From assembly GCA_965200205.1 (NCBI GenBank), contig CBDAUI010000001.1, positions 1,778,664-1,842,663 on the forward strand: 64,000 bases of DNA, read 5' to 3'. This document shows positions 16,410-63,990 of the stretch, one piece after another. Position 1 is the stretch's first letter, and each line of letters begins with the position of its first letter. Source of the DNA: Candidatus Poribacteria bacterium. Its GTDB lineage: Bacteria > Poribacteria > WGA-4E > WGA-3G. The notes under the pieces were generated by a model. That model worked only from the letters and a program-made list of their open reading frames with translations, made no database searches and had not been told where the DNA came from. Made by a program: the position numbers and the translations under genes.

Positions 16410-18965
<2,556 letters not shown>

Positions 18966-21677: not shown

Positions 21678-21719
21678 GGTTGTGCGGTTCGGAAACCGCA
21701 CCTACAAACGGAGAAACCG

Positions 21720-27286: not shown

Positions 27287-27320
27287 ATAGGCGTGGTTCC
27301 TAACCGCGCCTATTTTTATG
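27287..27320 (+). terminator. Rho-independent terminator shared by a convergent gene pair.
   Basis: ATAGGCGTGG-TTCCTAA-CCGCGCCTAT (10-bp stem with one G-U pair) followed by TTTTTAT. Confidence 0.6.
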
Positions 27321-29087: not shown

Positions 29088-32000
29088 ATGCAATTATTCT
29101 TAAAACAGAAACAGCGGCACAAAAAATCGCGGATTGGTCTCATACTAATTGTCTCCGCTTTCTTTTTTCTCATATCGACTTTCAGAGCGTCTGCACGCGT
29201 TACCCAAGTCACATCAACCGACGGTATCACGGTTCAGTTTACATTAGCTAACCTGACTGTTTCTGAAGTTACCCGCGACAATGTTCGCTACCACGAAGTA
29301 CGCTATGCCGACTCCCGTTTCACAAGTGAACCCGGCAATCCGAAGGTTCCGGTCACACGTCTTCTGCTCGGTATACCGGTGACAGCTGACATCGATGGAA
29401 TTGACGTTTCCGCTGCACCGTCTGAAACGCGCAACGGTGTCCGTTTAGTGCCTGTCCCGATTTACGATGTGCAACAAAGAAACACCCCAGCAAAAACCCT
29501 TGAAGAACATCGGTTAGAAACCGATACTAGGCAAAAACACTTACAACACGCGGCATCACAACGTTGGGAAGAGAGGGGAAGGGCATATCAATCAAATGGT
29601 GGAAATGCGTCGTATCCGGGGTTGCCGCTTGCGCGCGTCGTCCGGGAAGGTTATATTCGGAGTCAGCGTGTCATCGCCTTAGCATTATATCCTGTGCAGT
29701 ATTTCCCGAAAACTCGGCAGTTACGCTTATATTCACGTTTCACTGTGAACATCCGTTTTTCTTACGGCAGTCAGCCATCAGCCATCGGTCTCCATCAGCA
29801 AGGAGAGGTTTTTGATAATCCGAGCACCTTTTCGCTGACTGCTGATAGCCGACAGCCGACAACCGAACCTGAGGTTTTTGAGCAAGCATTCTCTCGTCAA
29901 CTCCTCAATGCTGAACAAGCAGCGCATTTTCGGGCAGCGCGAAGAAACATCCCAGCAAAAACACCTCTGGTACCAGCAGCACCGCCGCTCTTGTCGAATG
30001 TAAGCAATACCACACGCTATAAATTGTTCGTTGAAGAGACCGGTGTCTATGCTATAACTGCAGCATCGCTCGCGCGCGACTGGGGGATAGACCTCATAGG
30101 TGCCAATCCTGCGAGGCTTCGGCTCACACACGGAGCCAGAGACGTACCGATCTATGTCAGCGGTGCAGCGGACAAAAGATTTGACCCAGAGGATGCTATC
30201 TTTTTCTTGGGACATAAACCGAAAAATCGGTATAGCCGTTGGAACATCTATTGGCTCACAGTTGACAAGAGTCAACGCATTTTGGATCGCGTGCCGCAGG
30301 TCACTGCAAACCCGACGGATCCAACGGCAACACAAGTTCCAACTTTCCGATCTAAAGTCCATTTTGAAGAAGATCACCTGACAAATAACCTCGAATTCGC
30401 CTATACAGATGGCGATAAACACGACTGGTTTACCTCGTTCGACTTCTGGTACTGGGACGGCATCAAAAACGGTGGTGACGGGGCTGAAATGCGTCTTGCG
30501 TTTCCGCTCTATGATGTCGCAAAAAGCTTTGACCCGTCACATATCTCTGTTGATTTACAGGGCGGCACACCGGTCGAACACAAAATTTTAGTTGCTATCA
30601 ACGGTGTCCGAATTGATGTCGCCGAGTGGGACTCGCAGGATTCGATCACCGTCGAGCGGACTTTGCGTACATGGGATACCTTTAAGAACAGAAGTGAAAG
30701 CGGCGAACAGAATGTTTTATCGCTTGCCCGCGTAGATTATAATGTTGATGAGGACACGACTCGGTATCCGTATCATGTCTATCTCAACCGTTTTTCTGTT
30801 GAGTATACCCGACTTTTCCGCGCTGTTGCTGACGAGTTATGGTTCAGATCGCCTGGTAGGGGCGAGGTCACCTCGCCCCTACAATCACGCACACAGCCCC
30901 CCGGCGGACGTAAACTCCAATACAGAATTGAGGCGTTCCGAGACCCAGGTGTCCACATCTTTGAAACAGATGGCACATACCTCACGGCTCAGATGCGCGG
31001 TGTTACCGTAGAACCGGATCCCGCCCGTTCAGATTTATACAATGCGCTGTTTCAGACGCTTGATACCCGAAGTGCACAGTTTATTGCGGTTTCTGATACG
31101 GCACTAAGGCAACCTCAGCGTGTCGAAGTCGTTGCGCCATCAGATTTGGCAACAGCAACGCACGGTGTCGATTATTTGGTTGTGACACACCCGAAATTCC
31201 TGCTTGCAGCGGAACGGCTATCAGCATGGCGTGCCACACCTGGTGGCGGCGGATACCGAACAAAGGTTGTCACAACTGACGATATTTATAACACCTACGG
31301 TGATGGAGCCGTCAGCCCGAAAGCGATCAAGAGTTTTCTAACACACGCCTATCAATCCTGGGCACCACCTGCACTGAGTTACGTTGTCCTCCTCGGCGAC
31401 GGCACCTTTGATTTTCGTGGTATTGATACGGAAATCCACGCCGAGCCGCCTGAACTTGACGGGTATATCCCGACGCACTACATCCGAACCGATTCCTTCG
31501 GACGTACAGCGTCAGATCACTGGTATGCGACCGTCTCCGGACACGACGAATTCACAGATTTTTATATCGGTAGACTCAGCGTCGAAACCGTTAACGAAGC
31601 CGAGGCTGTTGTCAGTAAAATCTTGGCTTACGAACAGGCACCACCAAACGACGACTGGCGCAGAAGGATCATCTCTGTTGCTGACGACGAAGTTAGCAAT
31701 TCTGGGGATTTTATATTTAAGAAGAGCCTCGACGAGATCGCGAAGGACCACACCCGATTGGGATACGAGACCGTCGAAATTTTCCTTGAGGATATTACGG
31801 ATGAGGTCGAGGCGAGACCTGATGATTTTGATGTACATCCCCAACGCCTCGCGAAAGACATGATCATTGAAGCACTCGGAGAGGGGGCTGTCCTCGCACA
31901 GTACGCCGGACACGGCGGGAATACTGTCTGGGCACACGAAATCATTTTTGACAATGTATCTGTTGATCAGGTGGAGGAAACTGACAAGGTTCCTTTTATG

Positions 32001-35000
32001 TTAGTCCTGAGTTGTTACAACGGTTATTTTGATAAACCGGGTGAACCGAGCATGGCAGAAAAGTTGTTGCGCAAAGAGAGAGGCGGGATCATCGGCATGT
32101 TGAGCGCCACACGCCTCACTTACGCCAGCGGGAACGACGCACTCAACCGTATCATCTTTGATATGCTCTTTAAACGGAACGTCCGACAACTCGGCCCTTT
32201 GAGCTTCGACTCAAAAACCGAACTTTTGATCACGGAAGGGACTGGACAGATTGATGTCATGTTAGAGTACACGCTATTTGGGGATCCGGCTCTACAGATG
32301 GCTATCGCTGATGGCGAGGTTCAACCTGCTATTGAGACGAAGACGGTCGCACCAGGGGATACACTCCGAATAGCACCCGGACATGTTCTGGATGCCGATT
32401 ATGACACAGTCAGTCAGAAGAAAAAATTTGTAAAAAATACCGATTTTGATGGAACGCTCACTGTCAAGGCTGTATTTCCCGGTAAGACAGCCGTTTCTCA
32501 AGGGGTCGCCGGGCCAGTTGAATACTACACAGGTGATGTTGTCTTGACGAAGACGCTTTCTATTAGCCGTGGGGCATATCCGACTGTTACTTTCACCGTT
32601 CCACAAAACATCGCCAGTGGCGACGCGCACGTTGAATATTACGCGCAGAGCAACACAACAGTCGCTGTTGGTGGCGATGGGTTTACTGTCAATGTCCCTA
32701 AAATTCTTGACATCCAACCCGAATTGGTCGGGGGTTTGACCGAGAACGCGACTCCGACATCTTCTTCAAAGGCACGCGTTCTCGGTCAAAAATTTCGTAT
32801 CTCTGTTCAGATTTCGGATGATAGTAGGAGCGAGGTGACCTCGCCCCTACTGGTGGTTTTGGAATGGCGGAATTTAGCGACGCGCGAGTGGGAAACTGTA
32901 CGCCTCGTTCAAGGCAGCGAGGACGGCTGGTGGACAACACCTGAACCGTTAGATGCACCTACAGACGGCTCCGCTATCCGATACGATATTCAGGTCACAG
33001 ATGCCGACGGCAATATCACCGTAAGCGATAGATTGCAATATTATCCTTATGCCTATCCGAACCTCTCTGTTGTACAGGTGCAGAGGACTGATATGATTCG
33101 TTACGGCTACAATGCTGAGCGAAAGCAGTGGTTCCTTGCAACAGATGTTCAGGTAGAAGGAGACCCTGTAGGGAATCCAGTCGAAATTAGTTTTTTTAAC
33201 GGCAATCCGGATGTTGACGAGGACATGCTTGTTGATAGCGGTGCTGTGCTTCTCGGCAGTGCACAGATACAACCCAGTGACTGGCTACAACGCACGCCGT
33301 TGATTAATTCAGGAGAGGCACCTGATGGGAAACGAGAAGAAACACCCTATCGAAAACACTATGAACCCGATCCGTTGAACGTCTTACCGATTGCGACGGC
33401 AACTTTGAACTTAACGGACCCGTTGCGTCCCGGTATACACGACATCTTTGTTTATATTGATGCAACGGAAACGGAATCGGAGCGTCCGGGTGAAGTCGTT
33501 GAAAACGACGAAGAAGATAATATCGCCTACCGGCGTATTTCTGTTGATGTCGGTGCAGTTGATGCTGCCGCTTCAGGTCAAATTATCAGTTTGGACGGAA
33601 ATTGCGTCGTTACAGTGCCATCCGGTGCGTTTCAGGATGTGGCAGTCCTTGCAGTCCGTTCTTTAGATGCGCAGCGGTTTGCTGCTATTGGATCGGAAAA
33701 CGCAGGGGGCGTACCTTCTAACCGAGATTCATTACCGATTTCCCTAAACACAATTACAGGTGTTGACGAGAACGGGCAGCCCAAGCGCGCACCGCTACCC
33801 GGTACTTCCACTTATGGGTACGAATTATCAGTAGTTAACAGTACTCAGTACGATTTTTCTGCGAAAAATCTTTCAGTTGACAGTGACAAGAGGTCTTTGG
33901 AATATCATAGCACCTCTTTAACTCAGAACCGAAAGCGCAGCGTACTGACAACTGAGAACCAGTACGCCATTGATCTGAATTTCGATTATGGAACCCTGAG
34001 AACGCAGCTTGCCGAAGAGGTGTTAGGAAGTTCGGAAGAGGCGGTTTCCGGTGGTTTAGATGTTACAGGTACACTTGACACGGCAGTTGCCGCGCGGGCA
34101 CGTGAGATGGGGGTCTACATGTTTAATTCGACACTCGGATATTGGACGCGACTTCCTTCTCAATATCTAACCGATGCTGCCGGAACACTGAGACGACGGA
34201 TACATATAACAGATATAAATGCGAAGAATGTCGGCGGTGGACAACTCCGAAATGTCCGCATCCAACCTGAAGGCGCGCGAGTCGGAAAATACGTTCTCTT
34301 TTTCACAGGACCCCGCACATACCGCGTCTTCCACGCACCTTTTGTGGACGGTGTAGACAATCCAGGAAATCCTGGCGAATTAGAAATTATTTCGCCAGTA
34401 GAGCAACTCGCAAGTTTCAGTATAGACTATCCGAACTGGACACACGGATTCGCCCTTGATATGGAACAGGATTTTGAACAACCCTTCGTATTCGGTGATG
34501 TCTGGACGTTTAACGTAACTGCGATCAGCCAAACACTGGAAGGCGGACTGAATATTGAAGGTCCCTTACAACAAGAATTACGCTGGTCCCCTGCCGGTTT
34601 CAGAGATACCAATCGGGGTACTGGCACTATCAGTTATATTGAACTCCATCGGTTAGAAACCGATGCTAGTGCAACTATGCCTGAAGATCAATGGATTGTC
34701 TTTTTCCTTACAGACACCGAATTTCAGATTGAAGGCAAGAGAACTGGGGTCTTACGTTCCGCATCTGATGGTACGCCGCTCCGTGGGACAGTCGGTCAGC
34801 CGTTCTTCTATGAACCCTACGGGTTACGGCTTCAACTAACACATGGCGAAAATCCGTTTGCACCAGGCGACAGATTCCGCTTTGAAACCCGACCTGTCGG
34901 GACGATTCGAGCGACTACCGATAGACTCGGACCGATCACACTCGTTTACAGCGACGACACCGTGCCACCAGATATCCAACTCACTATCGGTAACCAGCAG

Positions 35001-35594
35001 CATTTCGTTCCGGGTGATGCAACAGACCCTGAACCCCTTATCGGCGCAACATTAACCGATCCGAGTGGACTCGATTATCTCACCCGACCCCTATTGTTAG
35101 AACTTGGAAGGGTGTCCGGTGAATCCGAGCGCATCGCGCCAGAGGCGTATCAACTGACGCACCACCCCGGCTCGAATCAACTCGTTTTGACATATCCATC
35201 ACCAGAACTTGAACCCCGTGAGTACGAACTTCGGCTGACGGCAAGCGATGTACACGGGAACACCGACACAAAACGCATTACGTTCCGGGTTCACGACAAC
35301 CTGCAGCTGCTCTCATTTCTGAACTATCCGAACCCGTTTTCGCGTAAAACGACGCTCACATGTGAATTAACGGCACCGGCGGATTCGCTCATGGTAAAAA
35401 TCTATACGTTAAGCGGACGGATGATTCGGGAACTCTCTATCCCGGCGACTCCCGGGTTCTTGATGGTAGAGTGGGATGGCAGAGATGCGGATGGTGTTGA
35501 GGTCGCAAACGGCGTTTATTACGCTAAACTCCAGATTAAACGTGAAGGTGAAAAAGATATTACTGAGATACTCAAAATGATGAAATTGCGTTAA
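29088..35594 (+). CDS. Giant secreted peptidase C25 (gingipain-like cysteine protease) family protein with a C-terminal Por_Secre_tail/FlgD-Ig-like sorting domain.
   Basis: A signal peptide is present. A C25 N-terminal region is recognised (VDYLVVTHPKFL...WR...VVTTDDIYNTYGDG...YVVLLGDG). The catalytic His (QYAGHGGNTVWAHEIIFD) and Cys (FMLVLSCYNGYFD) match the gingipain pattern. The C-terminus reads LSFLNYPNPFSRKTTL...KIYTLSGRMIREL...WDGRDADGVEVANGVYYAKL. Confidence 0.8.
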   Translation: MQLFLKQKQRHKKSRIGLILIVSAFFFLISTFRASARVTQVTSTDGITVQFTLANLTVSEVTRDNVRYHEVRYADSRFTSEPGNPKVPVTRLLLGIPVTADIDGIDVSAAPSETRNGVRLVPVPIYDVQQRNTPAKTLEEHRLETDTRQKHLQHAASQRWEERGRAYQSNGGNASYPGLPLARVVREGYIRSQRVIALALYPVQYFPKTRQLRLYSRFTVNIRFSYGSQPSAIGLHQQGEVFDNPSTFSLTADSRQPTTEPEVFEQAFSRQLLNAEQAAHFRAARRNIPAKTPLVPAAPPLLSNVSNTTRYKLFVEETGVYAITAASLARDWGIDLIGANPARLRLTHGARDVPIYVSGAADKRFDPEDAIFFLGHKPKNRYSRWNIYWLTVDKSQRILDRVPQVTANPTDPTATQVPTFRSKVHFEEDHLTNNLEFAYTDGDKHDWFTSFDFWYWDGIKNGGDGAEMRLAFPLYDVAKSFDPSHISVDLQGGTPVEHKILVAINGVRIDVAEWDSQDSITVERTLRTWDTFKNRSESGEQNVLSLARVDYNVDEDTTRYPYHVYLNRFSVEYTRLFRAVADELWFRSPGRGEVTSPLQSRTQPPGGRKLQYRIEAFRDPGVHIFETDGTYLTAQMRGVTVEPDPARSDLYNALFQTLDTRSAQFIAVSDTALRQPQRVEVVAPSDLATATHGVDYLVVTHPKFLLAAERLSAWRATPGGGGYRTKVVTTDDIYNTYGDGAVSPKAIKSFLTHAYQSWAPPALSYVVLLGDGTFDFRGIDTEIHAEPPELDGYIPTHYIRTDSFGRTASDHWYATVSGHDEFTDFYIGRLSVETVNEAEAVVSKILAYEQAPPNDDWRRRIISVADDEVSNSGDFIFKKSLDEIAKDHTRLGYETVEIFLEDITDEVEARPDDFDVHPQRLAKDMIIEALGEGAVLAQYAGHGGNTVWAHEIIFDNVSVDQVEETDKVPFMLVLSCYNGYFDKPGEPSMAEKLLRKERGGIIGMLSATRLTYASGNDALNRIIFDMLFKRNVRQLGPLSFDSKTELLITEGTGQIDVMLEYTLFGDPALQMAIADGEVQPAIETKTVAPGDTLRIAPGHVLDADYDTVSQKKKFVKNTDFDGTLTVKAVFPGKTAVSQGVAGPVEYYTGDVVLTKTLSISRGAYPTVTFTVPQNIASGDAHVEYYAQSNTTVAVGGDGFTVNVPKILDIQPELVGGLTENATPTSSSKARVLGQKFRISVQISDDSRSEVTSPLLVVLEWRNLATREWETVRLVQGSEDGWWTTPEPLDAPTDGSAIRYDIQVTDADGNITVSDRLQYYPYAYPNLSVVQVQRTDMIRYGYNAERKQWFLATDVQVEGDPVGNPVEISFFNGNPDVDEDMLVDSGAVLLGSAQIQPSDWLQRTPLINSGEAPDGKREETPYRKHYEPDPLNVLPIATATLNLTDPLRPGIHDIFVYIDATETESERPGEVVENDEEDNIAYRRISVDVGAVDAAASGQIISLDGNCVVTVPSGAFQDVAVLAVRSLDAQRFAAIGSENAGGVPSNRDSLPISLNTITGVDENGQPKRAPLPGTSTYGYELSVVNSTQYDFSAKNLSVDSDKRSLEYHSTSLTQNRKRSVLTTENQYAIDLNFDYGTLRTQLAEEVLGSSEEAVSGGLDVTGTLDTAVAARAREMGVYMFNSTLGYWTRLPSQYLTDAAGTLRRRIHITDINAKNVGGGQLRNVRIQPEGARVGKYVLFFTGPRTYRVFHAPFVDGVDNPGNPGELEIISPVEQLASFSIDYPNWTHGFALDMEQDFEQPFVFGDVWTFNVTAISQTLEGGLNIEGPLQQELRWSPAGFRDTNRGTGTISYIELHRLETDASATMPEDQWIVFFLTDTEFQIEGKRTGVLRSASDGTPLRGTVGQPFFYEPYGLRLQLTHGENPFAPGDRFRFETRPVGTIRATTDRLGPITLVYSDDTVPPDIQLTIGNQQHFVPGDATDPEPLIGATLTDPSGLDYLTRPLLLELGRVSGESERIAPEAYQLTHHPGSNQLVLTYPSPELEPREYELRLTASDVHGNTDTKRITFRVHDNLQLLSFLNYPNPFSRKTTLTCELTAPADSLMVKIYTLSGRMIRELSIPATPGFLMVEWDGRDADGVEVANGVYYAKLQIKREGEKDITEILKMMKLR
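30856..30882. repeat. 27-nt palindromic REP-like element, in-frame inside the C25 CDS.
   Basis: GTAGGGGCGAGGTCACCTCGCCCCTAC. It encodes GRGEVTSPL. Confidence 0.8.
32824..32850. repeat. 27-nt palindromic REP-like element (inverted copy), in-frame inside the C25 CDS.
   Basis: GTAGGAGCGAGGTGACCTCGCCCCTAC. It encodes SRSEVTSPL. Confidence 0.8.
33826..33960. repeat. Intragenic, in-frame copy of the ~110-bp MITE-like element inside the C25 CDS.
   Basis: CAGTACGATTTTTCTGCGAAAAATCTTTCAGTT matches 25114-25146, with a G-C to A-T compensatory change in the hairpin stem. Confidence 0.7.
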
Positions 35595-36674: not shown

Positions 36675-36775
36675 TAGTCATCGGCTATCGACTTTCAGCA
36701 AGAAAGAGTCGTTTTATACGCTGGTTCTCCTCTTTGCTGACTGCTAACGGCTGACGGCTATCTGACTGATTGCTT
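36675..36775. repeat. Heptamer tandem repeats/MITE-like element (TGCTGAC/GGCTGAC-type), related to 61124-61242.
   Basis: TGCTGAC TGCTAAC GGCTGAC GGCTATC. It also shares CATCGGCT...CTTTCAG...AGAGT with the element at 61139-61175. Confidence 0.65.
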
Positions 36776-38951
36776 GTTCCCAATCCCAGACAAGGATAGT
36801 TCCGTCTTGTCCCGTGCTAACGAACGTCTTTCCATCCTCTGAAAAGACTAACGCCTCTACCATTGCTGTGTGTCCATGAAGTGTATTTATCTTTTCGCCA
36901 GTTTTCAAATCGAATAATTCGATTCCGCCGTTTCTAAGTCCTGCAAGAAGAACGCTGTCATCAGGAGAAAACGCTAACGATGTGGCACCGCGTGGTCCAT
37001 CTTTAAGCCGAGGTTGCTTACTGCTGCCCAACAAACGAATTTTTTGGCTACTTCCGACAGCGAGCAACGTACCGTTTGAAGAGAATGCAAGTGCTCTGAT
37101 AATATCACTATATGTGACAGTAAAATTACCGGGTCCGCCTTTCACAGCCTCTTCCATATCCTGTCCTGCAAGAAAAGGAGCTAACGCGACTCCGGTTTCA
37201 GCATCCCACATCTGTACCTTTCCACCCATGTTTCCACTGATAAGTTTCTTTCCGTCAGGCGAAAACACCAAAGCACTGATAGAAGGTGTAATATGGCGAG
37301 GCATCAAGCCTGGTGGGAATTCAAAATCACCGTTTCCATCGGCATTGTTTGGATTTTCTGGAACATTCTCTTCATCTATAAGCGAGATGTTAACGCTGTT
37401 CCCTGTCTCCGTATTCCATACATAAATTTTACCCGAGCTATCAAACGCAACTGTTTTTCCATCAGGCGAGAAAGTTATACTGTTGTTGCCCGGATTCATT
37501 ACACCATCTGTATTATTTAAGTTTGCCAACTCACGCCCTGTCTTTGTCTCCGTCAACTGAATTCGTTGACTTCCCATTCGAGAGGAGAGGGTTGCACCTG
37601 AGCCGCCTGCCTCAAAAAACATAGTGGCTTTCGCGCCGGCACTTGCGAGTTTTGTTCCATCGGGTGAAAGTGCTGAACTTTGCAATAAATCACCATGTAC
37701 AGCATCTTCGGAAGCGGTTTGTTGCGATGTGTTCAGGTCCCAAAAGTCAATGATGCCGTTAAAGGCGACACTTACGAGCGCGGAACTTTCTTCACTGAAG
37801 GATACCATTTTGATCCACTTCGTATGTTCTGTAATGCTAATAGGTAACAATCCTCCAGTTTCAGTATTCCAGAATTTGATTGTTCCATCCGTGCTGCCAC
37901 TTGCAAGCCTGCTGCCATCGGGTGAAAACGATAGGGCAATAACCCCATTTAGATGTCCGGTGAATGTTGCGATTAATTCACCCGTGCCGGCATCCCATAG
38001 ATGCACTGTTCCATCCGTGCTCCCACTCGCGAGTCGTTTGCCGTCGGAAGAGAAGGCTAATGCATTTATCCATCCTGTGTGTTTTTGTAGGATAGCCAAT
38101 TCTTCGTTCGTGTCAGTATCCCACAATCGTACCGTTTTATCTTTACTTCCACTTGCGAGTCGCTTGCCATCAGGCGAAAATTCCAAGACCAATACGTGAA
38201 CACCCTCGTCTGGGAGGAAAAACGGTTGATCGTGATTATCCTCTTGAATTGCCAACTTGCGCTCTACTGGGGGTAAAATTCCTCCGTGACCCTCAAGCGT
38301 AGACAATTTTTTACCAGTTGTTATATCCCACAATTCGATCTTCCCGACCTGACCTCCAACGGCAAATTTGTCGTGCGTGAGTGCATAAGGTTCAGGGCTG
38401 GTTCGCCGCGTCACCTTTTCCCAAGAACGGTCTTCAATATTTTTCGCATCTCCTTTTCCAGTTTCAACATCTAATCTACCGATTACGTCTGCCCAGCCTT
38501 CTAAAGTGACAAGTGCTTTTCCGTCTTCAGAGAATTGCAGTGCTGATGCCGAGCGATGACCATCAGTAAGTGATACTTTCTGACCGGTGGCTGTTTCCCA
38601 CAACTGAAGTCCGCCGCCACGAAACGAGAATTTTCCGCCGCCACTTGCGATAAATCTGCCATCGGGTGAAAATGCGATGGCTTGAGATCGCCCCGGTAAC
38701 AGGTCAATCTCTTTGCCCGTATTTAGGTCGTAAATCCATATACCGATGCTGGTTCCGACAGCGATTTGTGTGCCGTCTGGTGAGAATTGAATGGCATTAA
38801 TCCCGCCTTTTCCGAATCTTGCTTTCGCTGCTTTCGGCAGTTCCCATTTTGTATAATTTTCGGTTGTTTCGTCTATTTGTGCTTTGGCGGCGAATACAAC
38901 CGATCCGATTAGGAGTGCACATATCAGTAGAACTCTATAAAACCTATTCAT
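36744..38951 (-). CDS. Secreted WD40 repeat beta-propeller protein (paralog of the C-terminal part of the ECF-WD40 fusion).
   Basis: Signal peptide MNRFYRVLLICALLIGSVVFAAKAQ. Many WD40 repeats (FSPDG...ASGS...WD). About 85% nucleotide identity to stretches of 39094-41250. Confidence 0.8.
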   Translation of the reverse strand: MNRFYRVLLICALLIGSVVFAAKAQIDETTENYTKWELPKAAKARFGKGGINAIQFSPDGTQIAVGTSIGIWIYDLNTGKEIDLLPGRSQAIAFSPDGRFIASGGGKFSFRGGGLQLWETATGQKVSLTDGHRSASALQFSEDGKALVTLEGWADVIGRLDVETGKGDAKNIEDRSWEKVTRRTSPEPYALTHDKFAVGGQVGKIELWDITTGKKLSTLEGHGGILPPVERKLAIQEDNHDQPFFLPDEGVHVLVLEFSPDGKRLASGSKDKTVRLWDTDTNEELAILQKHTGWINALAFSSDGKRLASGSTDGTVHLWDAGTGELIATFTGHLNGVIALSFSPDGSRLASGSTDGTIKFWNTETGGLLPISITEHTKWIKMVSFSEESSALVSVAFNGIIDFWDLNTSQQTASEDAVHGDLLQSSALSPDGTKLASAGAKATMFFEAGGSGATLSSRMGSQRIQLTETKTGRELANLNNTDGVMNPGNNSITFSPDGKTVAFDSSGKIYVWNTETGNSVNISLIDEENVPENPNNADGNGDFEFPPGLMPRHITPSISALVFSPDGKKLISGNMGGKVQMWDAETGVALAPFLAGQDMEEAVKGGPGNFTVTYSDIIRALAFSSNGTLLAVGSSQKIRLLGSSKQPRLKDGPRGATSLAFSPDDSVLLAGLRNGGIELFDLKTGEKINTLHGHTAMVEALVFSEDGKTFVSTGQDGTILVWDWEQAISQIAVSR

Positions 38952-39064: not shown

Positions 39065-39091
39065 GTAGGGGCTGGGTCACCCAGCCCCTAC
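39065..39091. repeat. 27-nt palindromic REP-like element (intergenic variant).
   Basis: GTAGGGGCTGGGTCACCCAGCCCCTAC. Compensatory GAGG/CCTC to TGGG/CCCA changes relative to the intragenic copies preserve the dyad. Confidence 0.75.
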
Positions 39092-39093
39092 TT

Positions 39094-42000
39094 TCACTGT
39101 TTTTCGGTGCTATGCAAACCTTTCAGGGTTTTACTCCAATCCCAGACAAGGATGGTTCCGTCTTGTCCCGTGCTGACGAGCGTTTTGCCATCGGGTGAAA
39201 AGACTAACGTCTCTACTATTGAGGTGTGTCCGTTGAGCGTACTTATTTTTTCACCAGTAGCCATATCAAATAGTTCGATGCTACCGTTTCTAAGTCCTGC
39301 GAGAAGAACGGTGTCATCAGGCGAAAACACTAAAGATTTAGCGCCACGTGGAACATCTTTAAGTTGAGGCTGCTTGCTGCCACCTAACAGACGGATTTTT
39401 CGTTCGCTTCCGACAGCGATTCGCCTGCTATCTGAAGGAAACGCAAACGTCGTAATAGGATCCCGATACCCAACGCCTTCCTTTCCAGCGAAGAAGGGTG
39501 CTAATTCAACCCCGGTTTCAGCATCCCACATCTGAACCTTTCCACCCATAGTTCCGCTGACAAGTTTTTTCCCGTCCGGTGAGAATGCTAAAGCACTAAT
39601 TTGAGGCATTTGATGGGGCATCACGTCTGGCAGCGGTGCCAAGTCGCCTTTTCCATTAGCGTTATGTTCATCTAAGATGGATACGTCAAGACGGGTGCCA
39701 GTCTCAGTGTTCCATAAATGCATTTTACCTAAACCGCCGAAGGCGACTGTTTTCCTATCAGGTGAAAAAACCATGCATGGGTACGGATTAATTCCAACGT
39801 TTACCTCATTTAATGTTGCTAATTCGTTTCCGGTACTGACATCCGTTAGACGAACTTGAGGATCCGGCATCCAAGAAGATATCATATTCCCTAGACCTGC
39901 ATCAAGGAGCATAGTCGCTTGTGCACCGACACTTGCGAGTTTTGTTCCGTCCGGTGAAAATGCTAAAGTTGGTAAAAAATCTCGATGTCCAGTATTTTGC
40001 GAACCGGTTTTCTGTGATGTTTTCAGATCCCAAAAAGTAACGATCCCATTAAATGCGACGCTTGCGAGTGTGGAACTATCTTTAAAGAAGGAAACAGCCT
40101 TCACCCACTCGGTATGCTCTGTAATATTGATCGGTAGCAAATTCCCGTTTTCCGTGTTCCAGAACTTTATTTTTCCATCAGCACTTGCACTCGCGAGTGT
40201 TTTACCATCCGGTGAAAACGATAGTGCAGAGATGCTGTTTAGATGTCCGTTGAGCGTCGTGATCAGTTCGCCTGTTTCAGTATCCCATAAATTCACTGTT
40301 TTGTCGGTGCTTCCACTTGCGAGTTTTTTCCCGTTCGGAGAGAACGCTAATGTGTTTGTCCACCCGGTGTGTTTTCCAAGAGTAGCCAATTCTTCGTTAG
40401 TATCGGTATCCCATAATCGTACCGTTTTATCTTTACTTCCGCTTGCGAGTTTTGTTCCGTCCGGCGAAAACTCAAGGACTAAAACGTGGTTGCTGCCTTG
40501 TAGTAAAAGTGGTATCTCTTCCCTAATGATAACAGGTGGAGCAACTTTCTTCTTCATCTGTAAAGGCCGAGGTCCCTTCACTTGAACTTTCTCATCTTTA
40601 TCCGCCTCAATTGTACGCGCCTTCAAATCTTTATCTGCTTCTACTATAAAAGAAGGCAGTAGTGGTGATGCCTCAATATTCTTTATTTTCGCTTTGAGGG
40701 TAGATATTTTTTTACCCGTCATTGTGTCCCATAGTTCTATTTTCCCATCTTTTCCGCCAACTGCAAATTTGTCGTGTGTAAGTGCATAGGGTTCAGGCAT
40801 AGATCTCGATTTTATCATTTCCCAAGACCGTTCCTTTATATTTTTCACATCCGCTTTTCCTGTTTCAACATCTAATCTACCAATCGAGTCTCCCTGATTT
40901 CCTAAAGTGACAAGCGTTTTCCCATCTTCAGAGAATTGCAATACTGATGCAGGAGGCGTACCGTCAGTAAGTTCCACTTTCTGACCCGTAGCAATCTCCC
41001 ACAATTGAAACCCCGCGTGAAATGTATATCTACCACCACCACTTGCGATGAATCGTCCATCAGGCGAAAAAGCGATGGATTGGCACATACCAGGGAACAT
41101 CGTAATCTCTTTTCCCGTTTTTAGGTCGTATAGCCACACACCGATATTACTACCGACAGCAATTTGTGTGCCATCTGGCGAGAATTGAAGCGCGTTGATA
41201 CCACCTTTTCCGAGCCTCGCTTTCGCCTCTTTAGGGAGCTCCCATTTTGTGTAATCGTCGGTAAGTTCATCAGCGTGTGCTTCCGCAACGAGTGCTGGTG
41301 CATCCTCGGGAAGTTGTTCCGATTTGCTGCTTCTACCCGGTATGTTGGTGCTTCCGATCTGTGTTCGCGTATCCGGTTTAGACGCAACGTTCAGCACGAT
41401 AGGTGTTTCGATCAGTTCAATTGTCATCTCTGACGCGGCATCGAGGCTATACAGCTTCTGGAAACGGAGTGCATGTTGCTGGTTTCCGATGCCCAGCATC
41501 AGCAATAGCACTGCAACCGTGGAAGCGGCGATTGCCCACGGCATAAAGGGTTTAGCACCGGAGGGTGCGGCGGGTTTAATGCGGGCGACCTCTCGCATAA
41601 TATTCTCTGTGAGGTTTGGCGTGATCTGGAAGTTTTCTAAAGCCTCACGAATCATCGGCTCCTCTTTCTTCAAGTGCTGCTGCGCACGGCGGAGGCGACT
41701 CTTGATTGTGTTTTTCGATACGCCCAAAAACGTGCCAATCTCCGTGCAGGACATCTCGGCGAAGTAGTGAAGCGTGATAACGGTGCGTTCGCTGTCCTGT
41801 AATTTTTCAAGCAGCTTCTTAACGACATCCCGTTGGGCTTCTGCGGTTGTGCGTTCATTTTCCGCAGCGACGTATCCAGAATATGTCGCCTTTTGTCGCT
41901 GCTCGTTGTCTGTTTCCTCAAGCTCCTCAAGAGGTTGCGTCCACAACCGCTTTTTACGGAGCCAAGAGCTGCAACGGTTCGCCGCGATGACATAGAGCCA

Positions 42001-42213
42001 ACTTGCGAACCGCTGAGGCTTCTTGAGTGTGGAAAGCCGCTTATATGCGTTCAGAAAAGTGTCCTGTGTGATCTCCTCAGCGATATGGAAATCCCCGATT
42101 TTACGCCATGCGAGGGCGTGCACCTGTTTCTGATATTTTCTCACCAGCACAGAAAAGGCATCATCGTCGCCTTCAAGGACGCGTTGGATGAGGTCAGCAT
42201 CGTCGTTTTTCAT
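39094..42213 (-). CDS. ECF-type sigma-70 factor fused through one TM helix to a large WD40 beta-propeller domain (ECF sigma with WD40 C-terminal extension).
   Basis: The N-terminus has sigma70 region 2 (LIQRVLEGDDDAFSVLVRKYQKQVHALAWRKIGD...EEITQDTFLNAY) and region 4 (ERTVITLHYFAEMSCTEIGTFLGVSKNTIKSRLRRA). A TM helix (AIAASTVAVLLLMLGIG) and WD40 repeats follow. GGAGG RBS. Confidence 0.8.
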   Translation of the reverse strand: MKNDDADLIQRVLEGDDDAFSVLVRKYQKQVHALAWRKIGDFHIAEEITQDTFLNAYKRLSTLKKPQRFASWLYVIAANRCSSWLRKKRLWTQPLEELEETDNEQRQKATYSGYVAAENERTTAEAQRDVVKKLLEKLQDSERTVITLHYFAEMSCTEIGTFLGVSKNTIKSRLRRAQQHLKKEEPMIREALENFQITPNLTENIMREVARIKPAAPSGAKPFMPWAIAASTVAVLLLMLGIGNQQHALRFQKLYSLDAASEMTIELIETPIVLNVASKPDTRTQIGSTNIPGRSSKSEQLPEDAPALVAEAHADELTDDYTKWELPKEAKARLGKGGINALQFSPDGTQIAVGSNIGVWLYDLKTGKEITMFPGMCQSIAFSPDGRFIASGGGRYTFHAGFQLWEIATGQKVELTDGTPPASVLQFSEDGKTLVTLGNQGDSIGRLDVETGKADVKNIKERSWEMIKSRSMPEPYALTHDKFAVGGKDGKIELWDTMTGKKISTLKAKIKNIEASPLLPSFIVEADKDLKARTIEADKDEKVQVKGPRPLQMKKKVAPPVIIREEIPLLLQGSNHVLVLEFSPDGTKLASGSKDKTVRLWDTDTNEELATLGKHTGWTNTLAFSPNGKKLASGSTDKTVNLWDTETGELITTLNGHLNSISALSFSPDGKTLASASADGKIKFWNTENGNLLPINITEHTEWVKAVSFFKDSSTLASVAFNGIVTFWDLKTSQKTGSQNTGHRDFLPTLAFSPDGTKLASVGAQATMLLDAGLGNMISSWMPDPQVRLTDVSTGNELATLNEVNVGINPYPCMVFSPDRKTVAFGGLGKMHLWNTETGTRLDVSILDEHNANGKGDLAPLPDVMPHQMPQISALAFSPDGKKLVSGTMGGKVQMWDAETGVELAPFFAGKEGVGYRDPITTFAFPSDSRRIAVGSERKIRLLGGSKQPQLKDVPRGAKSLVFSPDDTVLLAGLRNGSIELFDMATGEKISTLNGHTSIVETLVFSPDGKTLVSTGQDGTILVWDWSKTLKGLHSTEKQ

Positions 42214-44825: not shown

Positions 44826-46025
44826 TTATTCGTAAACGTGATACTGTATTGTGCGGTCTTGCCACTCTTGAAGTTCTTGCCTCCACCGTGCTTGGATTGC
44901 CTCCGCTGAATTCCGATTCGATAATGCCTCTCGCAGCCATCTGTTTCCTGCCAATCTATCAAAATGTGACGCTGAGAAAGCGAAATGGTCACTGTATTCA
45001 GCCGTTAGTGTGGATAGCATCTGAATGGTTGTCTCTATCGGACGGAGACGTTCTCTATCGGTAATATGGATAGCGACACCGTGGCAGGTCTGTTTCGCGT
45101 ATTTTGTGGTCTCAGACGCAGGGGCAGGTGTAAAGACAACAGAACGGAACCGAACCCCCGGCAGTTGGCAGTCGTTGAGTTGTTCTGCCCATTTTTCGCC
45201 GTTACACCAAGGCGCACCGATATATTCAAACGGCTTTGTCGTTCCACGGCCTTCACTCATATTTGTCCCTTCAAACAGGCATAAACCCGGATAGAGCGTC
45301 GCTGTTGTTAGGGTAGGCATGTTCGGTGAAGGTGGCACCCACGGCAATCCGGTATCATCGAACCACATCGCTCGCTTATATTCGGGCATCCACGCAACTT
45401 TCAGCTGACAGGACGGCACGCGTTCCGCTTTTAATAGCGTCGCCAATTCCCCGATTGTCAACCCGTAGCGGATCGGTATCTGATGTATTCCAACAAACGA
45501 TTCGGATCCACCTTCCAATACCGGTCCCTCTATAGAATTACACGTAATCGGATTAGGTCGGTCAGCGACAATGAACGCAACCCCGCAGTCCGCGGCTGCT
45601 TCCATCGCGTACAGCATCGTGGAAATATAGGTATAGTAACGCGCGCCAACATCTTGCATATCGTAGACCAGTAGATCTATGCCTTCAAGCTGCTGTGCTG
45701 TTGGGCGCATGGATTGACCGTATAAACTGAAAACGGGAACATTTAATGGGTTTTCGTCTCGTAGAGGAGAAGTTACCTCGCCGCTACTATTGATAGCGAT
45801 ACCATCTTGGACTGCACCCCAGAGTCCATGCTCTGGCGTGAAAATCGCGGAGAGGCGGCACTCCGGTACTTCTGCGAGAAGTCGATAGTTGTTTTGTAAG
45901 GTTGCATCGACACCGGTATGATTTGTAATAAGTCCGATGGATTTCCCTTGAAGCCAGTCACGTTTCTCAGTGCGTAAGACGCTCAATCCTAATTCGAGTG
46001 TTTGAGAATTTGTTGTAGTAGACAT
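44826..46025 (-). CDS. DUF1343 family protein (exo-beta-N-acetylmuramidase NamZ-like).
   Basis: N-terminal ...GKSIGLITNHTGVD... pattern of DUF1343. It is operonic with anmK and contains a degenerate copy of the palindromic element that encodes GEVTSPL. Confidence 0.65.
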   Translation of the reverse strand: MSTTTNSQTLELGLSVLRTEKRDWLQGKSIGLITNHTGVDATLQNNYRLLAEVPECRLSAIFTPEHGLWGAVQDGIAINSSGEVTSPLRDENPLNVPVFSLYGQSMRPTAQQLEGIDLLVYDMQDVGARYYTYISTMLYAMEAAADCGVAFIVADRPNPITCNSIEGPVLEGGSESFVGIHQIPIRYGLTIGELATLLKAERVPSCQLKVAWMPEYKRAMWFDDTGLPWVPPSPNMPTLTTATLYPGLCLFEGTNMSEGRGTTKPFEYIGAPWCNGEKWAEQLNDCQLPGVRFRSVVFTPAPASETTKYAKQTCHGVAIHITDRERLRPIETTIQMLSTLTAEYSDHFAFSASHFDRLAGNRWLREALSNRNSAEAIQARWRQELQEWQDRTIQYHVYE

Positions 46026-62883: not shown

Positions 62884-63990
62884 CGTGCTTTTTTAGTATC
62901 AGTAGAAATTCTGATTTCATCCCGTCCGGATTTTTATTTTTCCGCGCACCGAAGAGTTTCCGCGTCTTAATTCTATCCTCATAGACCTTTTCAAACGTCC
63001 ATCCGCGTTCCGTAAAATACTCCGCTAAAATCCGCCATATTTCGACCGTTATGCCGTCAATCCGAGGGTTACCAACAAAGATACAGGCTGCGGCATTCGG
63101 TTTCAGTTGACCCATCGCGTTTTCGAGGGCATTGACCGTGTGACAGAAATAGGAATCAAGTCGTTTGCAAAGGTCGGCACGGGTGAGCGTTTCCCGGACT
63201 TTATTCAACGTTTCGGTCTCAACGATCCGATCTGCCTTCCGATACGGGATTTCAAGCCGCGATAATTCCCGGACCTCTTCCTCGGTGTGCCCTAACCAGA
63301 AAAGTTCCATCTTCGTGGAACGGATATACTCCTGCGCTTGGAGGTAGGGTGGCGATGTTATGAGCGCGTCGCATTCTCTCGGTACAGTGATATAGGACGA
63401 ATCCACACCGCCTTGCCACTGTATGTCAGGCGTGTGCTCGTTGTAATGCTGCGGTAGGTGCGGTTTCCTAACCGCACACACGAAGTCGTTGAGCCTTCTT
63501 AACGTCTTTAGTGAGACACTATGAACCATCTCATCTAATTGTTCTCTCCAATTTGTCTTAAGCAGTTCCGCTATAGCGTTCAACTTACGTTTGGATCTCG
63601 CAAGTTTAGGTGTCCTGTCCTCTGTGTTGGAGAAACGTTTACTCGCCTTCAACAACGCAGCCTTAATGATGGAAGAAAAAACATCGTTGTCCGTGTTATG
63701 GATGAATCCCCAGTAATATGATAAGACCTCTAACATTTCGGGTGCGTACCAGTAATCGACGTTTGACCAAGCCGGTGTAAACCGGTGGTTGCTTTCTCGC
63801 ATTGCTGCCAAGCGTCTGAACAAATCCGCTTCCTTCAACGGTTTTTTCCCGCTATAAATTTTCAGCGGCATAATATGGTTCAGAAGTAGATTGAGATCGA
63901 AGAGAATGGCATTGCGTTTGCACAAGTAAGCCTCAACACCTACTGTCCCTGATCCTGCAAACGGATCTATAATCCAATCCGCTTCCTTTG
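62783..63990 (-). CDS. SAM-dependent amino-methyltransferase (DNA MTase-like). It is partial because the N-terminus lies beyond the window end.
   Basis: The open frame continues to the window edge. Motif I IDPFAGSGT at about 63945-63970 and motif IV DALITSPPY. The C-terminal tail reads through antisense of the convergent TPR gene. Confidence 0.55.

Follow-up and report, generated by a model that had tools for sequence, protein, structure and literature searches.

A 27-nt palindrome, very probably a double-foot GTAG REP, lies in frame in two protein genes of a Candidatus Poribacteria bacterium

Double-foot GTAG REPs were defined by Quentin, Siguier, Chandler and Fichant (2018, PMC6006769) as the partners of RAYT (TnpA_REP) subclass 2.4, a subclass with a patchy distribution across many phyla. 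They reported in-frame insertions in genes, the RAYT gene itself included, and noted that the double-foot form could arise from a REP dimer by loss of its central part. Table S1 of that paper contains, in a REPtron, the 27-mer GTAGGGGCGGGGTTACCCCGCCCCTAC, which is nearly identical to the palindrome described here. Among the REP criteria given there are a fully paired basal stem of 7-20 bp with at least three G/C in its first four bases and a loop of 2-5 nt. Di Nocera, De Gregorio and Rocco (2013, PMC3733652) found GTAG/CGTC REPs wholly within ORFs and in frame; these intragenic REPs add short peptides, such as VGAGLPA in Pseudomonas putida, and some genes were struck twice. They also found REPs that abut stop codons. 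The same paper mentions Rickettsia palindromic elements (RPE). The REPIN has been proposed as the form that is mobilised by RAYTs (Bertels and Rainey 2011, PMC3116915). Thus, the element type is not new and in-frame REPs in genes have already been published.

The window analysed here is a 64-kb stretch of DNA from a Candidatus Poribacteria bacterium in which a 27-nt palindrome recurs in unrelated genes. The explanation that we favour, and which is very probably correct, is that this 27-mer is a double-foot GTAG REP (repetitive extragenic palindrome), a non-autonomous element whose cognate enzymes are the REP-associated tyrosine transposases (RAYT) of subclass 2.4 and which has inserted at protein loops that tolerate it. 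The features are given below, the REPs being named according to this probable assignment.

29088 to 35594, plus strand: host gene 1, a C25-family cysteine peptidase of 2168 aa with Propeptide_C25, Peptidase_C25 and FlgD_ig domains
30856 to 30882, no strand assigned: intact double-foot REP GTAGGGGCGAGGTCACCTCGCCCCTAC, GAGG/CCTC subfamily, centre C, site 1 of the C25 gene, translates as RGEVTSPL
32824 to 32850, no strand assigned: double-foot REP GTAGGAGCGAGGTGACCTCGCCCCTAC, one arm mismatch, centre G, site 2 of the C25 gene, translates as RSEVTSPL
39065 to 39091, no strand assigned: intact intergenic double-foot REP GTAGGGGCTGGGTCACCCAGCCCCTAC, TGGG/CCCA subfamily
39094 to 42213, minus strand: WD40-repeat gene, whose orthologues at related loci also have sigma-70 domains
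44826 to 46025, minus strand: host gene 2, exo-beta-N-acetylmuramidase NamZ (DUF1343), with a REP-derived insert between the PEHG and SLYG motifs
45761 to 45787, minus strand: decayed REP in NamZ, GTAGCGGCGAGGTAACTTCTCCTCTAC, translates as SSGEVTSPL, arms unpaired

Anatomy and distribution of the palindrome

A sequence-only reading of the window had reported palindromes at 30856, 32824, 39065 and 45761 and all four were found there, three of them intact and one decayed, against 0 expected in 64 kb. When the 27-mer was used as the query, 30856-30882 matched with 0 mismatches and 32824-32850 with 2 on the plus strand or 1 on the minus strand, and there was no match in shuffled sequence. The outer pattern GTAGGGG-N13-CCCCTAC additionally recovered 39065-39091, with 0 matches in shuffles. 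The three intact window copies follow the 27-nt pattern GTAGGGGC-NN-GGTNACC-NN-GCCCCTAC. The copy at 32824-32850 had been described as the inverted form of the first; the copy is present, but the supposed inversion is merely an unpaired centre base, G for C, together with an arm mismatch (G6 to A).

All three intact copies begin with GTAG, as expected of a 5' GT[AG]G foot, and close with CTAC, as expected of a C[TC]AC 3' foot, so that the unit is symmetric. Between the feet, the arms GGGCGAGG/CCTCGCCC form an 8-bp GC-rich stem, GGGCNNGG, with a 3-nt loop. With the feet included, the intact copies fold into hairpins of 12-13 bp with RNA energies of -25.1 (30856-30882), -20.0 and -25.8 kcal/mol (z = -5 to -7); as DNA the energies are about -15 kcal/mol, compared to about -25 kcal/mol as RNA. 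The decayed copy at 45761-45787 reaches -10 kcal/mol (z = -1.8). Three other element types were considered and rejected. The copies are not a CRISPR array because the distances between them are about 2 kb, 6 kb and 7 kb, they occur both in genes and in spacers, and other loci are mostly single-copy. They are single 27-nt hairpins and not REP doublets with a spacer, which excludes a REPIN. An element with terminal inverted repeats around an internal region and a target-site duplication does not fit either, since the whole unit is one hairpin and no duplication was found at the four junctions resolved at the DNA level.

The palindrome is widespread, with more than 119 copies in more than ten phyla, and several Poribacteria genomes each supplied loci. 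In the 119 palindrome loci, where the GTAG foot was imposed by the search pattern, flanks are unrelated and pairing ends at GTAG/CTAC, and therefore the repeat is exactly 27 nt; complementarity of the flanking base pairs, seen in 29-37 of 120 copies, is close to the chance level. Of 123 copies, about 97 are outside open frames of at least 200 codons, with no recurrent neighbouring gene. There is thus an extragenic bias in the wider set, yet of the four window copies three are inside genes. Classic single-foot GTAGGGGC REPs are also found at these loci, as are REP dimers in inverted orientation; L018 and L040 contain true doublets of related REPs, and in L028, L032 and L089 the palindrome is partly tandem-duplicated, which shows local slippage at these hairpins.

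At the two stem positions that the search pattern did not constrain (pairs 9-19 and 10-18), 118 of 120 copies have Watson-Crick pairs, and 3 and 4 pair types, respectively, are represented. At least seven stem variants occur among the loci, the subfamilies differing by complementary changes. It had been claimed that the change from GAGG/CCTC to TGGG/CCCA in the window is a local compensatory change showing selection on the hairpin. This does not hold because these are two of several widespread subfamilies and the coding copies decay. The covariance is real, but since coding copies lose their pairing it does not reflect maintenance by the host. Of the four differences between the NamZ copy and the consensus, three are synonymous third-position changes in the arms and one is R-to-S. 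The hairpin is thus lost from coding copies, in NamZ for the most part without a change of residue, so the host does not maintain it, and palindromy is kept by whatever propagates the element.

These data bear on the alternative that the hairpin is a host-selected signal, such as an mRNA 3'-end stabiliser, a translation pause or a protein-binding site, in which case the coding copies would be retained for that role. In its favour, the hairpins have very high stability, palindromy is near perfect over 120 copies, and the intergenic copy at 39065-39091 is 2 nt past the stop codon of the minus-strand ORF 39094-42213, with the next gene 114 nt from its end. Liang et al. (2015), a paper among the references of PMC6006769, reportedly found that REPs just past stop codons in E. 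coli affect translation. However, no terminator-like T run follows this copy, the palindrome has no Rfam family, and flanks and neighbouring genes are unrelated between loci. Coding copies keep the peptide and lose the pairing: the arm changes in NamZ are synonymous in three cases, and the site 2 copies of L122, L209 and L210 are eroded. The element is missing from the majority of orthologues, which are conserved in other respects. Secondary mRNA effects of some intergenic copies may exist but would leave the origin unexplained. We therefore consider a host signal to be very improbable as the explanation.

Filled and empty sites in orthologous genes

In ORF 29088-35594 the two copies share a phase and read G-R-G-E-V-T-S-P-L-Q and S-R-S-E-V-T-S-P-L-L, and the minus-strand NamZ ORF reads S-S-G-E-V-T-S-P-L-R. 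Translation thus bears out the claim of in-frame GEVTSPL-type peptides in the C25 ORF, and translation and folding together confirm that the decayed NamZ copy still encodes GEVTSPL although its arms are unpaired. Both C25-gene copies are outside the Pfam domains, in indel-rich linkers. The earlier suggestion that symmetry is what keeps either orientation in frame is incorrect, as any 27-nt insert keeps the frame and what decides is the phase: whichever strand is read, TAG falls in frame in one of the three phases. Read in another phase the same DNA gives VGAGLPSPY or ETGSPSPY.

At site 1 the element is absent in 60 of 60 orthologues in the alignment and in 119 of 119 in a motif scan, and is found solely in the window gene among 120 orthologues; the orthologous DNA of L120 and L121 is ACCGAAGATAATACT. 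Site 1 has been struck twice independently; the two elements lie within about 10 nt of each other and differ in both subfamily and phase. At site 2 the element is present, intact or decayed, in 6 of the 120 orthologues, namely, the window gene and five relatives. Its boundaries are identical in a perfect copy in L121 and in decayed copies in L122, L209 and L210, while L120, L206 and L211 lack it, and the carriers are dispersed over the gene tree. The site 2 peptide diverges fast (RSEVTSPL, RDGVTQPL, TESGTQPL and RGGGTQSL). Other C25 orthologues have KGEVTSPLQ or VGAGLPSPY at different positions, and palindromic DNA was confirmed in the L121, L206 and L211 orthologues. L210 and P0132 share the NamZ insert with the window, whereas L211, a Poribacteria orthologue, and 23 homologues that are more distant do not have it. 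The spacer in L120 that is syntenic with the 39065 copy lacks this copy and contains a different GTAG REP.

Site 1, site 2, the NamZ site, the 39065 spacer and further sites in orthologues are thus filled in some genomes and empty in others. Because orthologues lack the element at sites 1 and 2 and others carry it elsewhere, the insertions are lineage-specific and not an ancestral motif. The proposal of a mobile REP-like palindrome that enters unrelated genes in frame and gives the same GEVTSPL peptide is supported by this presence and absence. Neither of the outcomes that had been named as refuting it was observed: copies also occur beyond the window, and orthologues do not have the nine codons without the DNA symmetry. 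The alternative that GEVTSPL is an ancestral or convergently selected peptide, for example a protein repeat module, with the palindrome incidental, might be suggested by its occurrence three times in two window proteins. The comparison refutes it: more than 100 Poribacteria orthologues have no element at site 1 and the majority have none at site 2, palindromic DNA accompanies the peptide wherever it is present, the same DNA is found between genes and in the other phase, and the site 2 peptide diverges quickly. This alternative is almost certainly wrong.

Insertion junctions and the link to RAYT

The insertions had been described as nine codons long, and they are not clean additions of that size: the net gain is +4, +5 or +6 codons with target codons replaced. 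Among six coding insertions none is a clean 27-nt addition, target DNA being replaced or bases added, and there is no target duplication, including at the four junctions that were resolved at the DNA level. In two independent events, window site 1 and L206 compared to its sister L207, exactly 15 nt were replaced by 30 nt consisting of the element, one 5' base and a 3' AA. The other coding events are net +12, +18, +18 and +36 nt. The ancestral sequence at site 2 has short matches to the right arm (TCGC..CT.CG).

The 64-kb window has no gene for a Y1 transposase, and in the 119 random palindrome loci none was found except for a truncated remnant in L024. This Poribacteria remnant belongs to a different RAYT clade, with an HYH motif and resembling subclass 2.8, and its own REPs are of the GTAGT-plus-hairpin type. 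In other genomes RAYT genes are found between GTAGGGGC...GCCCCTAC palindromes, in a REPtron layout in L215 and L212. L215 has a subclass-2.4-type RAYT (NHFH, WQ and YIVNNP) with the perfect palindrome GTAGGGGCGTACGGCCGTACGCCCCTAC on both sides, a Leptolinea plasmid RAYT has GTAGGGGC-foot REPs on its flanks, and the RAYT gene of L216 has an in-frame double-foot REP within it.

The mechanism that we propose for the double-foot REP is as follows. The element consists of a GTAG foot, the 8-bp stem, the 3-nt loop and a CTAC foot, and since the feet are symmetric either DNA strand presents the same GTAG-plus-hairpin substrate. RAYT/TnpA_REP (HUH/Y1) proteins bind the hairpin in single-strand DNA and cut and rejoin beside the GTAG foot. 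The element would then spread within the genome, most copies settling between genes, often just past stop codons. A rare landing in coding DNA would survive only if TAG is out of frame and the loop is tolerant, and the C25 linkers and the NamZ loop offer both. GEVTSPL would be the by-product of one reading phase, and the hairpin inside a gene, no longer maintained, erodes. Transposition of REPs by a RAYT is not known to have been demonstrated in vivo; we infer that a RAYT mobilised the copies in this genome and, likewise, the exact insertion chemistry.

The untidy junctions are not predicted by the precise peel-and-paste chemistry of IS200/IS605-type enzymes. They raise the question whether the palindrome, instead of being cut and pasted by a RAYT, is propagated through templated repair, template switching or gene conversion, an existing hairpin copy serving as filler or donor at a break or stalled fork and overwriting a stretch of target. 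The two 15 nt to 30 nt replacements of the same make-up, the varied sizes of the other events with no target duplication, the right-arm matches at site 2, the partial tandem duplications and the absence of a RAYT from the window would all fit this. Against it, coding DNA shows only in-frame tolerated outcomes and the messy junctions may be due to later trimming under selection, while the abrupt end of the repeat at 27 nt, the conservation of the GTAG/CTAC feet in different phyla and the REPtron layout (PMC6006769) point to recognition by a specific enzyme. As a general account of the spread it is improbable. It is slightly less doubtful, though still unlikely, that double-foot REPs may enter by a route other than precise RAYT transposition, for which repair or template switching that overwrites about 10-15 nt at preferred spots is a candidate. 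The repeated 15 nt to 30 nt outcome in place of a clean +27 nt, the double use of site 1, the scattered carriers of site 2 in the gene tree, and a dead gene of another clade as the sole trace found of a RAYT in a Poribacteria genome are all compatible with such a route. If so, REPs in this lineage would spread independently of any living transposase cognate to them.

Significance and comparison with known systems

The locus is a well-controlled case of a selfish DNA hairpin giving proteins extra residues: because one large gene has 120 orthologues for comparison, sites without the element can be viewed next to recent insertions and to older ones that are eroding. In this set the peptide is a tolerated by-product and the hairpin in the gene is not maintained. 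For annotation, recurring peptides such as GEVTSPL, VGAxxPxPY, VGATGRS and DRPVAPTG are best taken as footprints of REPs, and not as motifs, when they occur in proteins of Poribacteria, Chloroflexota, Cyanobacteria and Planctomycetota. Of all these observations, the untidiness of the junctions and the reuse of sites are the sole ones that could bear on how REPs move.

Like the palindrome described here, RPEs are palindromic repeats found in frame in unrelated protein genes, where they add a tolerated peptide segment. However, RPEs are roughly four to five times longer and unrelated in sequence, and they are not known to occur outside Rickettsia, to possess a GTAG foot or to be linked to a RAYT. 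REPINs (PMC3116915) are likewise symmetric hairpin units with a REP on each strand, but they have two separate inverted REPs and a spacer whereas in the window element two REPs share one hairpin. In the REPs of PMC3733652, too, subfamilies differ by complementary stem changes; there GTAG is an unpaired tag at one end, whereas in the window element it pairs with the 3' CTAC and the unit is fully symmetric. None of the window sequences is in the supplementary files of that paper.

The closest system is the double-foot REP of PMC6006769. The window differs from it in having no cognate RAYT and in the unclean junctions of its coding insertions, and a Poribacteria host and the GAGG/CCTC and TGGG/CCCA stem variants are absent from its table. 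The likeness extends to the 5' GTAG, the 3' CTAC, the GC-rich stem starting with GGGC, the 3-nt loop and the length of 27-28 nt, and to the REPtron layout in L215 and the in-frame copy in the L216 RAYT. The Table S1 sequence itself differs from the window copies solely at two covarying stem positions and the centre base.

Copies of the palindrome in the window

The 27-nt palindrome is present four times in the window, and all four sequences were confirmed at the positions where the sequence-only reading had placed them.

Copies of the palindrome in the window
30856-30882: site 1 copy, GTAGGGGCGAGGTCACCTCGCCCCTAC, in the C25 ORF, intact
32824-32850: site 2 copy, GTAGGAGCGAGGTGACCTCGCCCCTAC, in the C25 ORF, in the same phase as site 1
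39065-39091: intergenic copy, GTAGGGGCTGGGTCACCCAGCCCCTAC, starting 2 nt past the stop codon of the minus-strand gene 39094-42213
45761-45787: eroded copy, GTAGAGGAGAAGTTACCTCGCCGCTAC, inside the minus-strand NamZ/DUF1343 gene

A search of the window with up to 3 mismatches, or with only the outer 7 + 7 bases, recovered these copies and there were none in 100 shuffles. By Pfam, the ORF with sites 1 and 2 (29088-35594, plus strand, 2168 codons) codes for a C25 peptidase that includes propeptide and FlgD_ig domains, and both REPs are outside its Pfam domains. As had been claimed, the two copies are in frame in this ORF; they share one phase and give GRGEVTSPLQ and SRSEVTSPLL, respectively. The intact copies form hairpins of 12-13 bp with RNA energies of -25.1, -20.0, and -25.8 kcal/mol (z -5 to -7). 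The copy in the NamZ gene was described as encoding GEVTSPL with arms that are unpaired, and this was borne out by its peptide, SSGEVTSPLR, and by an RNA energy of -10 kcal/mol (z = -1.8). Its peptide differs from the subfamily consensus at one residue (R to S), and three more changes, at third positions of the right arm, are synonymous; this indicates that the hairpin is not maintained by the host. Neither an Rfam scan nor a terminator scan gave a match for the element.

The window also has a second, single-foot GTAG REP family, GTAGGTGCGGTTTCCKAACCGCAC, and a degenerate symmetric relative, ATAGGCGTGGTTCCTAACCGCGCCTAT (21682-21705, minus strand; 63454-63477, plus strand; and 27287-27313). In L120, the locus of the closest syntenic relative, the spacer syntenic to the copy at 39065 is occupied by a related copy, GTAGGTTCGGTTTCCCAACCGAAC. 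The spacer at 39065 and that of L120 gave no alignment and a clean empty intergenic site was not obtained. The minus-strand genes at 36744-38951 and 39094-42213 are neighbouring large WD40-repeat genes, and the orthologue of the latter in related loci has additional sigma-70 region 2 and region 4 domains, an unusual sigma-factor/WD40 fusion.

Distribution and stem variation across genomes

Scanning one genome per species for GTAGGNGCNNGGTNACCNNGCNCCTAC gave at least 119 matching stretches, while about 1 chance match is expected by arithmetic from the 20 specified bases and the collection size. Thus, the element is not unique to the window. Hosts among the matches listed are Poribacteria, Anaerolineae and other Chloroflexota, Cyanobacteria (Calothrix, Coleofasciculus, Planktothrix), Planctomycetota, Brocadiaceae, Desulfobaccales, Nitrospira, Omnitrophota, Zixibacteria, Fibrobacteria, Ignavibacteria, Spirochaetia, and others. 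Among these same matches the flanks are unrelated between loci, the dyad boundary is exactly GTAG/CTAC, about four fifths of the copies fall outside long open frames, and the stems belong to GGGG/CCCC, GAGG/CCTC, TGGG/CCCA, TTGG/CCAA, GCGG/CCGC, and AGGG/CCCT subfamilies. In the covariation check that had been proposed, the two stem positions left free by the pattern were Watson-Crick in 118 of the 120 copies listed. The paired GAGG/CCTC to TGGG/CCCA substitutions in the intergenic copy had been read as selection on the hairpin, and this did not hold: both are widespread subfamilies, so the substitutions in the window are not a local compensatory event, and the NamZ hairpin erodes.

The same loci have 28-nt relatives such as GTAGGGGCGACCGGCCGGTCGCCCCTAC and ordinary single-foot REPs (GTAG plus a GGGC...GCCC hairpin), some of them as inverted dimers. 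Partial tandem duplications of the palindrome were seen in L028 (1147-1236), L032 (4951-5003), L089 (4907-4950), and L039 (6944-6978), which are mostly cyanobacterial loci, for example GTAGGGGCTTGGTAACCAAGC four times ahead of a complete copy, a pattern suggestive of replication slippage at the hairpin. Viral contigs gave one match only and therefore the element is not phage-borne. The plasmid collection had zero exact copies and only single-foot GTAGGGGC REPs in one Vescimonas replicon. These REPs, such as GTAGGGGCGGGGTTCTACCCCGCCC (L208, 2960-3060; Vescimonas fastidiosa NZ_AP023416.1), are in about 19 places on the 861-kb replicon. As Vescimonas is a Firmicute of the human gut, the range of the GTAGGGGC foot family includes that phylum. 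ORFs lying no more than 2 kb from a palindrome in the 119 loci listed were compared all-against-all by BLAST and gave no recurrent neighbour gene, the best family being in 6 loci. The adjacent-gene hypothesis, including four-helix-bundle or GxxExxY genes as candidates, was therefore dropped.

Insertions in C25 and NamZ genes

The C25 gene was compared with 120 full-length or near-full-length relatives of 58-86% identity, besides its own 100% entry, and all those with a source name are from Candidatus Poribacteria. At site 1, all 60 aligned orthologues have RSP-TEDNT-SRTQ as against RSP-GRGEVTSPLQ-SRTQ in the window, and when all 120 were scanned for the motif, the site 1 peptide turned up in the window only. 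At site 2 most orthologues lack the insert and read SDE-KEESLL-VVLEW; the element-derived segment is common to the window and only the proteins P0003, P0018, P0015, P0007, and P0008. The P0003 locus, L121, has a perfect GTAGGGGCGAGGTAACCTCGCCCCTAC with the same boundaries as in the window, the DNA is eroded in L122, L209, and L210, and the peptide drifts fast among the carriers. The ancestral DNA is kept in L120 (the closest orthologue, 86% identity), L206, and L211. In a neighbour-joining tree the site 2 carriers are scattered among orthologues with the ancestral sequence, and this needs inter-lineage recombination or repeated hits. Other C25 relatives have inserts elsewhere, and palindromic DNA was confirmed for those in L206 and L211.

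Inserts at other positions in C25 proteins
Near residue 1460: KGEVTSPLQ, P0031
Near residue 1610: GEVTSPLQ, P0092, P0094, and P0095
Near residue 1406: VGAGLPSPY (the other open phase), P0025
Near residue 1539: SGWVTQPL and RDSVTQPL, P0011 and P0012

The NamZ insert is common to the window, L210, and P0132, and is missing in the Poribacteria orthologue in L211 and in 23 more distant homologues. These sequence comparisons, with their empty orthologue sites, argue that the inserts are lineage-specific and exclude an ancestral peptide motif. Being lineage-specific at site 1, site 2, and NamZ, they bear out the proposal that a mobile palindrome is seeding one peptide into unrelated proteins; the finding is real and the main interpretation of the sequence-only reading is right.

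In L122 (6346-6400), the region coding for the N-terminal part of P0018 has two additional, opposed GTAG hairpins, GTAGGGGTTCGGTTTCCGAACC and GTAGGGGTCAGGTTACCTGACCC, and thus some C25 orthologues hold at least three REP insertions. The alignment gap at site 2 in P0046 (L207, 4730-4860; SAVSSRAALTARQVGKEGSDEVTPLADSREPRAESQE) is 34 residues longer than in most orthologues, and this stretch with SDEVTPL is possibly a much-altered REP remnant plus further insertions. L120 has an extra RRXRR-domain (PF14239) gene between the C25 and UPF0164 genes (16643-17665), whereas the window has none at that position; this difference may be a mobile gene indel.

At site 1, CCT(ACCGAAGATAATACT)TCA is changed to CCT(G + 27-mer + AA)TCA and, in L206 relative to its sister L207, GAT(GCAACAGGAACTGAC)GCG is changed to GAT(AATAAGGGCGAGGTTACCTCGCCCCTACAA)GCG, 15 nt being swapped for 30 in each case. 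The net gain is 12 nt at site 2, 18 nt in NamZ relative to L211, 36 nt for the L211 event as judged from the protein alignment only, and 18 nt for an event at site 1 in L122. This L122 copy is of the TGGG/CCCA type, sits in the other phase, and is at most about 10 nt away from site 1 of the window, a case of site reuse. None of the events compared is a clean 27-nt coding insertion and no target duplication is visible at the coding insertions compared. The untidy junctions may be due to later trimming because genes retain only in-frame, tolerated outcomes, but they still depart from what precise single-strand transposition predicts. A replacement-type route of entry for these REPs, in place of precise transposition, is unlikely in our judgement.

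RAYT association and relation to known REPs

The window lacks any Y1 transposase gene, and it is therefore from other genomes that we infer that a subclass-2.4 RAYT would mobilise the window copies. Three loci independently confirmed the link between these REPs and RAYTs: the RAYT in L215 (NHFH, WQ, YIVNNP) lies between two perfect copies of the palindrome GTAGGGGCGTACGGCCGTACGCCCCTAC, one 60 nt upstream and the other 97 nt downstream, that on the Leptolinea plasmid in L212 (NHFH, WQ, YIINNP) is surrounded by GTAGGGGC-foot REPs, and the L216 RAYT has an in-frame GTAGGGGCAACCGGCTGGTTGCCCCTAC between its HUH and Y motifs. VGATGRS and DRPVAPTG-like peptides are in many of the 120 relatives listed for this RAYT. 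RAYTs near the palindromes were searched for in six-frame translations with an HMM from 34 RAYTs, a motif regex, and an E. coli RayT query, and in the loci listed only a truncated gene was found, in L024, a Poribacteria chromosome. Its clade has the HYH motif and YIHYNP, matching subclass 2.8 of PMC6006769, and a reconstructed full-length member gave a Pfam Y1_Tnp match; it has 9 close but fragmentary relatives and 534 that were confirmed in metagenome contigs, and 80 loci of these were retained. Because its flanking REPs are GTAGT-plus-hairpin and not of the GTAGGGGC type, the clade was rejected as the cognate enzyme. In L123 (2950-3150), an ocean-metagenome (TARA) contig, a RAYT pseudogene is broken by two short inserts. 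About 26-33 nt of the gene itself is repeated directly on the two sides of each insert, and one insert contains the hairpin GGCGAGGTTTCCCAACCTCGCC, translated as AGEVSQP; these look like duplication-plus-insert events rather than transposition.

A literature search with the raw element sequence gave only unrelated primer matches. Di Nocera et al. 2013 (PMC3733652) described a GTAG-tagged REP superfamily, with subfamilies that have complementary stem changes, REPs abutting stop codons, and in-frame REPs in ORFs giving characteristic peptides. Quentin et al. 2018 (PMC6006769) defined the double-foot REP by 5' GT[AG]G and 3' C[TC]AC and assigned such REPs to TnpA_REP (RAYT) subclass 2.4, which has the motifs NH[IFV]H, WQ, and YIxNNP, is patchy over multiple phyla, consistent with horizontal transfer, and often has REPs inserted in frame in its own RAYT genes. 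In Table S1 of that paper GTAGGGGC occurs 105 times, and GTAGGGGCGGGGTTACCCCGCCCCTAC and GTAGGGGCGACCGGCCGGTCGCCCCTAC are entered as double-foot REPs in REPtrons. The literature therefore settles what the element is, and it belongs to a class known from earlier work. In-frame REP insertion is likewise already described, and new here are the host lineage and, for one locus, a detailed natural history.
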